Part shown: positions 60,708-62,338 of the stretch, piece after piece | How the letters are laid out: each line of letters opens with the position of its first letter | Numbering within the stretch: the stretch's first letter is position 1 | DNA from: Escherichia phage vB_EcoM_FT | Direction: 5' to 3' (one strand) | Length of the DNA stretch: 64,000 nucleotides | Sequence record: MT682710.1 | Notes under the pieces: generated by a model | What the model was told of the DNA's origin: nothing | The model's database searches: none | What the model saw: only the letters and a program-made list of their open reading frames with translations | Position numbers and translations under genes: made by a program

Positions 60708-61487
60708 TTAATTAAAAATATATACTTCATCAGTTCCATTCTTTTCTTTGGAATGATATATGTTAAAGACGTATTTTTTATTAAGATGCTTAACATTATA
60801 TTTTTTAGACCATTCTTTAAGAAGAGTGTTTTCCTTTCCGTGATGCTCTAAAACATTCGACAGCCCAAATTTTATTCCTCTGTCATTTAAAGAATCTAAA
60901 AGATTTAAAAGGTCTTTTTCTTCTTCTTCTGACCAAAATTTATTATAATCAGCAACTGTTATGAGATACGGAGGATCTACATATACAAAATCGCCGTCTA
61001 GAATTTTGACATCTTTAAAATGCAATGAACTAAAGATTATTTTATCACAATTTTGCTTAAAGTGATTAAAGCGTTTTTCACTATTTTTGTTTATAGTTCT
61101 TTTTCCAAACGGAGTAGTAAAATTTCCTTTATCGTTTATACGAATCATATTACTAAATCCATGAAAATGAAGAACATAAAGTAAAAGAGGATCTCTAGTT
61201 TTATTATAATCTTCACGTAATTTCAAAAACTCTTCTTTTGATGTTTTTGATAGTTTGTATTGCTTTATTACTTTTAAAACGTCATCCCATGATACATTAA
61301 TAAGACGCTTATACATTTCAATAATTGGTTCTTGAATATCATTAGCCAATACAGGACCATTGACGTTCAAAGACACTGATAAACCTCCACAAAATAAATC
61401 CACGAATCTGTCATATTTTGGAAAGTGAGGCTTAAGTTCAGGTAATAATGACTGTTTATTACCTGTATACGCGATAGCTCCTAGCAT
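60708..61487 (-). CDS. dam: DNA adenine methyltransferase Dam
   Basis: 259 aa; DPPY catalytic motif; matches recalled T4 Dam. Confidence 0.95.
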
Positions 61488-62047
61488 TATATTCTCTCAT
61501 TTATTGCAGCAAAAAACGAATTATATAATTCTTCATCATATGTATTTGATAGTAATACTAACACGTTTTGTGATTTAGCATATTCATTAAACCTTGCTTG
61601 GATAGTTGGATTATCAGTAAATGATTCTCTTTTTGTCCATTTATTACGTGGATAATATCCGCATGGCAAAAAATCTAATATCATCAATGACACGGGGTTT
61701 TCAGTTTTTGTGTATTCTTTTAATTTCTCTTTATCTTCTAAATATATTCCAACCGAATCAATAGCTGTACCTCCACCAACTTGATGTTTAATTTCAATTA
61801 TATGCTTTTTACCGTTGCGAGAAATAACAATATCAAATCTTCTAGTACGCTTCTTAGTTATAAAATTAGAGCAAAACAAATTATTTGATTTTTCAGTATC
61901 ATCGGTTAAAACCATTTTTTCTTGATAACTAACTGAACAATCAGTGAAATATTCTTTTACTTTATTAAGTATGAAATTTTCAACTACGGCAGATATTTTA
62001 TATGAATCTCCGTTTAAAGCCATTTCATGCACAATTTTATTAATCAT
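61487..62047 (-). CDS. hypothetical protein with PD-(D/E)xK-like nuclease motif, immediately upstream of dam
   Basis: 186 aa; FD72-IVIS...IIE85-I-K87; own early promoter and SD GAGGA; stop overlaps dam ATG. Confidence 0.65.
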
Positions 62048-62072
62048 TATATCATCCTCAGCAATTTATTTT

Positions 62073-62102
62073 ATAATACCATAACAAGCTGAGAAAGTAA
62101 AC
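62073..62102 (-). promoter_or_regulatory. T4-type early promoter for the 186-aa ORF
   Basis: GTTTAC, exactly 17 bp, TATTAT on minus strand. Confidence 0.55.
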
Positions 62103-62137
62103 AAATTTGTGATAAATATTAATTTAAAGGAGGACAT

Positions 62138-62338
62138 ATGGTACAAAAATTAATGGCACTTGTTAATGCCATAAAAGGTAATAAAAAACGTATAGCTTTT
62201 ACTATTTCTGCTATGGTAGGAATTTTACTCTGGAACTTTATTTTATCACCAATTGCAATTGCGCATGGTGTTAATATTCCAGTAGTTACTCTTGATACAT
62301 TCGTAGATCTAGCATTTGCTTTAGTTGGGTTAATTTAA
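62138..62338 (+). CDS. small two-helix membrane peptide (66 aa), divergent from the 186-aa ORF
   Basis: Strong SD AAAGGAGG 7 nt before ATG; two hydrophobic segments; stop abuts gene 61 stop. Confidence 0.5.
   Translation: MVQKLMALVNAIKGNKKRIAFTISAMVGILLWNFILSPIAIAHGVNIPVVTLDTFVDLAFALVGLI

Follow-up and report, generated by a model that had tools for sequence, protein, structure and literature searches.

We analysed a stretch of 64,000 nucleotides (nt) from Escherichia phage vB_EcoM_FT (sequence record MT682710.1), here called the window, with emphasis on an open reading frame (ORF) of 186 amino acids (aa), ORF186, which lies immediately upstream of the phage dam gene. The window is that of a Tequatrovirus (T4-like), and this region is ~99% identical to phages such as slur03, BYEP02 and vB_Eco_EL. 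On the minus strand the gene order is 61.1, primase gene 61, ORF186, dam and the dCTPase gene 56, with a 66-aa ORF (ORF66) on the plus strand between gene 61 and ORF186. A first-pass annotation made from the sequence alone had placed ORF186 at 61487-62047 on the minus strand and ORF66 at 62138-62338 on the plus strand, and both pairs of coordinates are exact. Neither of them is a chance ORF; ORF186 matches phrog_8706 (6e-116, a phrog without assigned function) and is intact in ~154 phage records. The features of ORF186 and dam are as follows, SD denoting a Shine-Dalgarno sequence.

61487-62047, minus strand: ORF186, a 186-aa PD-(D/E)xK restriction-endonuclease-like protein with predicted catalytic residues E23, D72, E85 and K87
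60708-61487, minus strand: dam, a D12-class N6-adenine methyltransferase for GATC; partner gene of ORF186, which it follows with an overlap
61485-61489, minus strand: TAATG stop/start overlap of ORF186 and dam (ORF186 stop at 61489-61487, dam ATG at 61487-61485)
62055-62102, minus strand: putative T4-early-type promoter and SD for ORF186-dam, by consensus match only

The Dam protein of the window matches PF02086 (6.5e-51) and TIGR00571 (1.4e-69) and is 100% identical to the Dam of phage T2. The TAATG overlap suggests translational coupling of ORF186 and dam, as had been read from the sequence in the first pass. ORF186 had also been credited with an early promoter and SD of its own. Upstream of it on the minus strand we do find GTTTACT (GTTTAC at 62102-62097), a 17-nt spacer, TGgTATTAT at 62081-62073 and the SD GAGGA at 62059-62055, but a generic promoter scan gave no excess over shuffled sequence (8 found against 8.2 expected). 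As the scan is no richer than the shuffles, we regard the early promoter as plausible, without statistical support.

The structure of ORF186 was modelled by AlphaFold2 from 7 homologs, with a predicted local distance difference test score (pLDDT) of 79 and a predicted template modelling score (pTM) of 0.79. The elements of the model come in the order alpha, beta, beta, beta, alpha, alpha, beta, alpha, beta, alpha, and include the alpha-beta-beta-beta-alpha-beta core of the type II restriction-endonuclease fold. When the model was searched with Foldseek, MunI gave the best whole-length template modelling score (TM-score 0.59), and EcoRI was also listed. The residues E23, D72, E85, K87, H88, Q89 and the run G93-T-A-I-D-S98 are invariant in a 9-member alignment reaching down to 29% identity, with the run opening the helix that follows strand 3. 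The D...(D/E)xK catalytic motif lies on strands 2 and 3, and hhalign places D72, E85 and K87 on D83, E98 and K100 of MunI. The PD-(D/E)xK signature first noticed in the sequence (FD72...E85-I-K87) thus has the right residues, with family, fold and hhalign in agreement. Further, the PADLOC model for type II restriction endonucleases (REase_II) matches 3 of the 9 family members, at best with 5e-6. The compact fold of ORF186 is PD-(D/E)xK of the EcoRI/MunI class, with the active-site residues E...D...ExK invariant across the family.

The ORF186 motif E-x-K-H-Q-(x)-G, followed by G-[NT]-A-x-[ED]-[RS], resembles EAKHQG...GNAIERS of EcoRI and EIKRQDG...GNAHERS of MunI (both PDB-verified). These alpha-class type IIP enzymes nevertheless share only ~12% identity with ORF186, without significant sequence match to PDB chains, and the ORF186 family profile returned nothing from all PDB chains even at an expect value (E) of 10. 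The N, E and R with which MunI and EcoRI read AATT are replaced by T94, D97 and S98 in ORF186, hence its target is expected to differ from theirs. Both enzymes pair with methylases of their own, while ORF186 is paired with Dam.

The family is tiny. Two word-indexed searches of 5.8 billion proteins and an HMMER scan through all of 1.84 billion representatives yielded ~11 clusters, with no member outside T4-like phage contexts and no bridge from the family to any bacterial family. A scan of ORF186 against NCBIfam gave noise only. The GenBank record of phage Shinka labels its ORF186 homolog 'putative DpnII restriction endonuclease' while all others say hypothetical, and a T2 dam record from 1988 spans most of the homolog and leaves the ORF unannotated. 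No description of the gene was found in the literature searched, and we consider it essentially undescribed.

In every context examined, that is in Tequatrovirus, Jiaodavirus and six metagenomic lineages, the ORF186 homolog is located immediately upstream of a D12-class dam. The pair occupies the syntenic site between gene 61 and dam in the window and in the P0002 and P0006 lineages, and the adjacency is also found in T2, P0009, P0011 and P0013. In Klebsiella Jiaodavirus KPV15 the pair is relocated to a position between denB and ndd, and in the metagenomic locus L011 it is followed by a rIIA-like gene. Nuclease gene and dam adjoin directly or overlap in the window, and likewise in 6 of 7 relatives; the junctions are TAATG, TAA-ATG or ATGA, or else overlaps of 7, 20 or 35 nt. 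Only in T2 are the genes set apart, by 13 nt, which results from a 1-nt deletion that also alters the C-terminus of its ORF186. Across pairs of relatives, nuclease identity rises and falls with Dam identity (r = 0.87), and between genera the identities are 57-63% for ORF186, 61% for the primase gp61 and 68-72% for Dam.

ORF186 is present in 163 phage records overall, the isolates being ~150 Tequatrovirus and 6 Klebsiella Jiaodavirus. Among the Tequatrovirus records 148 hold a full-length ORF186 and 148 have ORF186 and dam contiguous, ~35 have dam only and ~330 have neither; ORF186 without dam was not seen among them. It should be noted that these counts come from tool summaries, not from a per-genome table. 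We considered whether ORF186 might be a nuclease-fold protein with a role unrelated to methylation, such as a nuclease of repair or recombination, or else a regulator that binds DNA, with its place beside dam due to operon history only. This seems very improbable, as the linkage to Dam outlasts both relocation (KPV15, L011) and divergence to ~35-45% identity, ORF186 is never found without Dam, and the active-site residues are invariant.

The distribution has the asymmetry of restriction-modification (R-M) systems, with an endonuclease never found without the methylase and a frequent solitary dam, and the endonuclease gene adjoins the methyltransferase gene in one unit. The pattern is R-M-like because the nuclease depends on the methylase and not the reverse, because the pair relocates as a unit, and because an intact active site has been kept for long. 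A methylation-linked nuclease was among the options named in the first pass, and this option is supported. We regard as real that ORF186 is a restriction-enzyme-like nuclease obligately coupled to the T-even Dam and deleted from T4. We further suggest, with the balance about even, that it serves as the endonuclease in a type II R-M-like pair borne by the phage, with the T-even Dam (GATC, N6-adenine) as the methylase half.

The mechanism we infer for such a pair is the following. ORF186 would act as a small homodimer cutting a short palindrome, most likely GATC or an overlapping site, and by analogy with its structural neighbours and DpnII the cut would leave 4-nt 5' overhangs. Dam methylation would prevent cleavage, judging from the Dam partner and the weak DpnII homology. 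DNA of the phage itself would be doubly shielded, by Dam and by (glucosyl-)hydroxymethylcytosine (hmC), and because of this double protection the targets would be unmethylated cytosine-containing DNA in the infected cell, such as co-infecting phages, plasmids and under-methylated host DNA.

Among Pfam families the top match of ORF186 is DpnII (PF04556), with 16.8 bits and E 0.0045 over profile positions 152-235 of 278, and this is the best family for 4 of 9 family members (best E 8.3e-5). For an alignment of families by hhalign we used 15 DpnII-family proteins from the database, which replaced a DpnII seed sequence (Pfam match 2.7e-100). The alignment pairs E23 with E152, RFDIVI with RFDFVI (D72 with D201), E85 with E214 and K87 with N216, E152, D201 and E214 being invariant in DpnII. 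The C-terminal half of an AlphaFold2 model of DpnII shares its order of helices and strands with ORF186. The methylase partner in DpnII/MboI-type systems is of the Dam-class D12 type (e.g. DpnM), and the partner of ORF186 is also a Dam-family GATC methylase. The two systems differ in that the phage pair has the order R then M with overlapping stop and start, and in that the DpnII system is bacterial while ORF186-dam resides in a virulent hmC phage. We treat the DpnII assignment as a lead and not as membership.

Among the plasmid relatives of the T-even Dam (loci L013, L015, L016 and L018), the closest (36-43% identity) are methylases of Firmicutes AlwI-type (GGATC) R-M systems, and the Dam-family genes of enterobacterial plasmids are more distant, at ~22-31% identity. 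These relationships are consistent with an R-M ancestry of the phage dam. A DpnII-type endonuclease was sought beside the closest plasmid relatives and was not found; these methylases were parts of AlwI-type (GGATC) or FokI-type systems, or stood alone.

A pair of this kind has a viral counterpart, by description only, in R.CviAI/M.CviAI of PBCV-1, where a lytic chlorovirus encodes a GATC methylase and a methylation-sensitive GATC endonuclease. The chlorovirus modifies its own genome and attacks DNA in the infected cell that lacks the modification, the unmethylated host DNA being the clear target. Unlike in the chlorovirus case, the hosts of the ORF186 phages are Dam-positive and the phage DNA carries glucosylated hmC.

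We also compared observed and expected counts of GATC. In the window (1-64000) GATC occurs 77 times against 210 expected, a ratio of 0.37, and it is by far the most depleted 4-bp palindrome, as it is the most depleted one in every genome sampled that bears the ORF186-dam cassette. The observed/expected ratios below were computed from genome segments (comparison loci L026-L031).

Window (Tequatrovirus), ORF186 and dam: 0.37
Tequatrovirus LF73P1, neither gene: 0.32
Jiaodavirus KPV15, ORF186 and dam: 0.14
Metagenomic carriers, ORF186 and dam: 0.08-0.35
Mosigvirus JK42, neither gene: 0.13
Gaprivervirus TH40 (50 kb), neither gene: 0 GATC of 184 expected
Slopekvirus mtp7, dam only: 0.97
Enterobacter phage ENT3, dam only: 0.96

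This shows intense selection on GATC in the hmC T-evens, whereas the dam-only Slopekvirus and ENT3 show no depletion. The depletion is compatible with a GATC nuclease circulating in the T-even group.

Several observations weigh against ORF186 as half of an R-M-like pair. Relatives lacking the cassette are as depleted in GATC as the carriers or more so (JK42 0.13, TH40 0 of 184), hence the depletion is not specific evidence. It may stem from another pressure, e.g. host MutH; a counter-selection of GATC based on MutH has been proposed for enterobacteriophages. The match to DpnII fails the Pfam gathering score (16.8 against 23 bits), and the hhalign comparison, covering 91 columns with E 6.8e-4, has a low probability of 27%; with such values part of the likeness to DpnII is that of the generic PD-(D/E)xK core. 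DpnII also has 288 aa with an extra N-terminal domain of ~120 aa that the 186-aa ORF186 lacks, and an ExN where ORF186 has ExK (K87). The nuclease activity, the specificity and the methylation sensitivity of ORF186 are all predicted properties. As for biology, E. coli, Klebsiella and Yersinia, the hosts, have a Dam of their own, and the DNA of the phage contains glucosyl-hmC, which makes it hard to name the prey of a cutter of unmethylated GATC, or the need for a Dam shield. Finally, ORF186 can decay without obvious harm, as seen from the T2 allele, which is frameshifted and uncoupled from dam.

The difficulty with Dam-positive hosts would be removed if ORF186 were a methylation-directed nuclease with DpnI- or MutH-like logic, which would need GATC in cytosine DNA to be Dam-methylated, or hemimethylated, before cutting or nicking it. 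We find this quite unlikely, and quite unlikely too the wider scheme in which the phage Dam completes the marking of host and foreign DNA, glucosyl-hmC phage DNA being immune, and which provides a third route of host-DNA degradation beside EndoII and EndoIV. It makes the gene useful in Dam-positive hosts, accounts equally well for the obligate link to Dam, and fits with the isolated carriers all belonging to hmC genera (Tequatrovirus and Jiaodavirus); Jiaodavirus encodes a dCMP hydroxymethylase and glucosyltransferases (PMC9960720). The structural and sequence neighbours of ORF186 are, though, orthodox enzymes blocked by methylation. MutH is not among the top structural matches of ORF186, and for that reason we keep a MutH-like role only within this alternative.

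A further variant is that ORF186 cuts hmC DNA at GATC unless it is Dam-methylated, the T-evens using the cassette as weapon and shield against co-infecting relatives. We hold this to be rather improbable. If true, it would explain why T-evens have a Dam despite Dam-positive hosts and glucosylated DNA, and also the purge of GATC from Tevenvirinae genomes, which is most complete in Dam-less genera (0 in 50 kb of a Gaprivervirus).

The absence of ORF186 from other T-even phages was traced to two intervals.

61575-62113, no strand assigned: 539-bp interval deleted in T4-type phages, with direct repeats TTTGTGAT (8 bp) at 61567-61574 and 62106-62113
60673-62126, no strand assigned: approximate extent of the ORF186-dam cassette (~1.45 kb), absent as a whole from T6-type Tequatrovirus, Mosigvirus and Gaprivervirus

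The 539-bp deletion takes codons 1 to ~157 of ORF186 together with its promoter, and T4 retains the last 88 nt of ORF186 upstream of dam. An identical deletion endpoint (query position 867) and the same 88-nt remnant are shared by ~35 records, including T4 and RB59. The cassette-less examples are T6, Mosigvirus JK42 and Gaprivervirus TH40. Since T4 holds the 3' remnant, the nuclease was lost in T4 and not inserted in the window phage, and a recent insertion of ORF186, raised in the first-pass annotation as something an alignment of the dam-61 interval could reveal, was rejected. The tentative statement there that T4 is not known to have a gene at this position holds for ORF186, which is absent from T4, but not for the interval as a whole, where T4 keeps the 88-nt remnant and has ORF66. 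In the reading as an R-M-like pair the solitary dam of T4 would be a methylase orphaned by the deletion of its nuclease gene.

T2 and T4 also share a 1-nt deletion in an A-run near the 3' end of ORF186 (window ~61511; T2, L002 3046-3060; T4, L003 ~2650), and the T2 allele encodes a 181-aa protein with an altered C-terminus. The lineage of T4 may thus have carried a frameshifted allele before the 539-bp deletion, and the shared A-run deletion suggests a stepwise decay of ORF186 in this lineage. The putative T4 dam promoter P(E)17.40 (1984 record X01416.1, L032 613-641) straddles the deletion junction 61574/62114. Its -35 lies across the junction from the -10, which is inside the ORF186 remnant, and with the two elements on opposite sides of the junction the putative P(E)17.40 would be a fusion made by the deletion.

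The patchy presence of ORF186 among near-identical Tequatrovirus genomes (148 of ~510 records) is what a free-standing homing endonuclease would give, and the first-pass annotation listed such an enzyme among its options. In this case ORF186 would behave in the manner of seg/mob, with a cleavage site in or near dam or the dam-61 interval of phages without the gene, and spread by double-strand-break repair in mixed infections. Like the T4 seg/mob genes (e.g. SegF beside gene 56), ORF186 is a small nuclease gene between conserved early genes, patchy in T-evens and overlapping its neighbour. The phage group is rich in homing endonucleases, with T4 segF ~1.3 kb away; seg genes too overlap their neighbours, and constant adjacency to one conserved gene is typical of homing endonuclease genes. 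However, ORF186 has diverged at the pace of the backbone (identity 57-63%, with 61% for gp61) and in parallel with Dam (r = 0.87), and is not near-identical across divergent backbones. The empty sites are not clean either, as those of T4 type hold the 88-nt remnant of a repeat-mediated deletion and those of T6 type lack dam as well. In the 88 nt that T4 retains and the adjoining 5' end of dam, T4 and the window differ only by 3 mismatches and one 1-nt indel, with no clear variant giving target-site immunity. The seg/mob enzymes have GIY-YIG or HNH folds, and the PD-(D/E)xK fold of ORF186 is unusual for phage homing enzymes; the modelled protein is compact, type IIP-like and 186 aa long, without the extra DNA-binding domain that a long target would need. 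Unlike seg/mob, ORF186 appears as an ancient resident co-diverging with the backbone, lost by deletion and always linked to a methylase. We therefore consider homing unlikely.

The function of the T-even Dam has been puzzling since the 1960s-70s, as GATC is methylated by the hosts themselves and glucosyl-hmC guards the phage DNA. If these phages acquired or have kept Dam as the protecting member of an R-M-like pair, then the dam of T4 is an orphan of a deletion while T2-type phages still carry the nuclease. The pair would further add a restriction enzyme to those of viruses, encoded here by one of the classical virulent coliphages and belonging to a family both very small and divergent. It would also be a candidate explanation for the extreme avoidance of GATC in the T-even group.

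Between ORF186 and gene 61 the following features were found.

62138-62338, plus strand: ORF66, a conserved 66-aa basic (pI 10) predicted small membrane protein; phrog_2024, 1.5e-31
62111-62118, plus strand: late-promoter-like GATAAATA, with 7 of 8 matches to the T4 TATAAATA, 8 nt upstream of the ORF66 SD
62143-62172, minus strand: terminator-like hairpin ATGGCATTAACAAGTGCCAT with T-run, within the ORF66 coding sequence; 1 found against 0.3 expected from shuffles

The SD of ORF66, AAAGGAGG, is located at 62126-62133 and the stop overlaps that of gene 61 by 4 nt, which agrees with the SD and the abutting stops noted earlier. Hydrophobic segments are found at ~19-43 and ~47-66. Of 692 phage records with ORF66, T4, T6, Mosigvirus and Gaprivervirus among them, 686 have it intact, its ratio of nonsynonymous to synonymous substitution rates (dN/dS) is 0.17-0.36, and two metagenomic relatives differ with a nonsynonymous proportion (pN) of 0.16 against a synonymous one (pS) of 0.90. 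The conservation expected of a true gene is thereby confirmed; ORF66 is under purifying selection and is a gene separate from ORF186. A toxin/immunity or exclusion pair of the two, as had been suggested, was rejected on their distribution, as ORF66 is found in 692 records, among them the nuclease-less T4, T6, Mosigvirus and Gaprivervirus, and ORF186 in 163. ORF186 and ORF66 as one unit is not supported either.

The orientation of ORF66 had been taken as unusual in an early region otherwise on the minus strand. It is no peculiarity of the window phage. The position of ORF66 is conserved across Tevenvirinae, and the late-promoter-like motif is a perfect TATAAATA at the corresponding place in the relative L009; in phage Lutter the annotation lists it as a promoter. 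ORF66 is thus probably a late gene, which explains its plus strand. In T4 ORF66 shows 98.5% identity (L003 ~2740-2938) and is unannotated in NC_000866.4, so that the reference annotation of T4 lacks a conserved gene for a small membrane protein that lies between gene 61 and dam. In T6 (L025 ~1501-1503) ATT replaces the ATG of ORF66 and the annotated ORF begins at the internal Met6; the name it bears there, 'putative head morphogenesis protein', appears to be noise from the transfer of annotations.

The predicted hairpin within ORF66 would end gene 61 transcripts ~165 nt beyond the gene 61 stop, before the ORF186 promoter. One metagenomic relative has an extra 93-aa ORF between the homologs of ORF66 and ORF186 (L009 4010-4291), and because of this the intergenic slot accepts other cargo. 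Downstream of gene 56, at the site of T4 segF, the window holds two small ORFs of 69 and 65 aa on the minus strand (59729-60132); here the window phage resembles T2 and T6, unlike T4, which has the homing endonuclease gene segF at this site.

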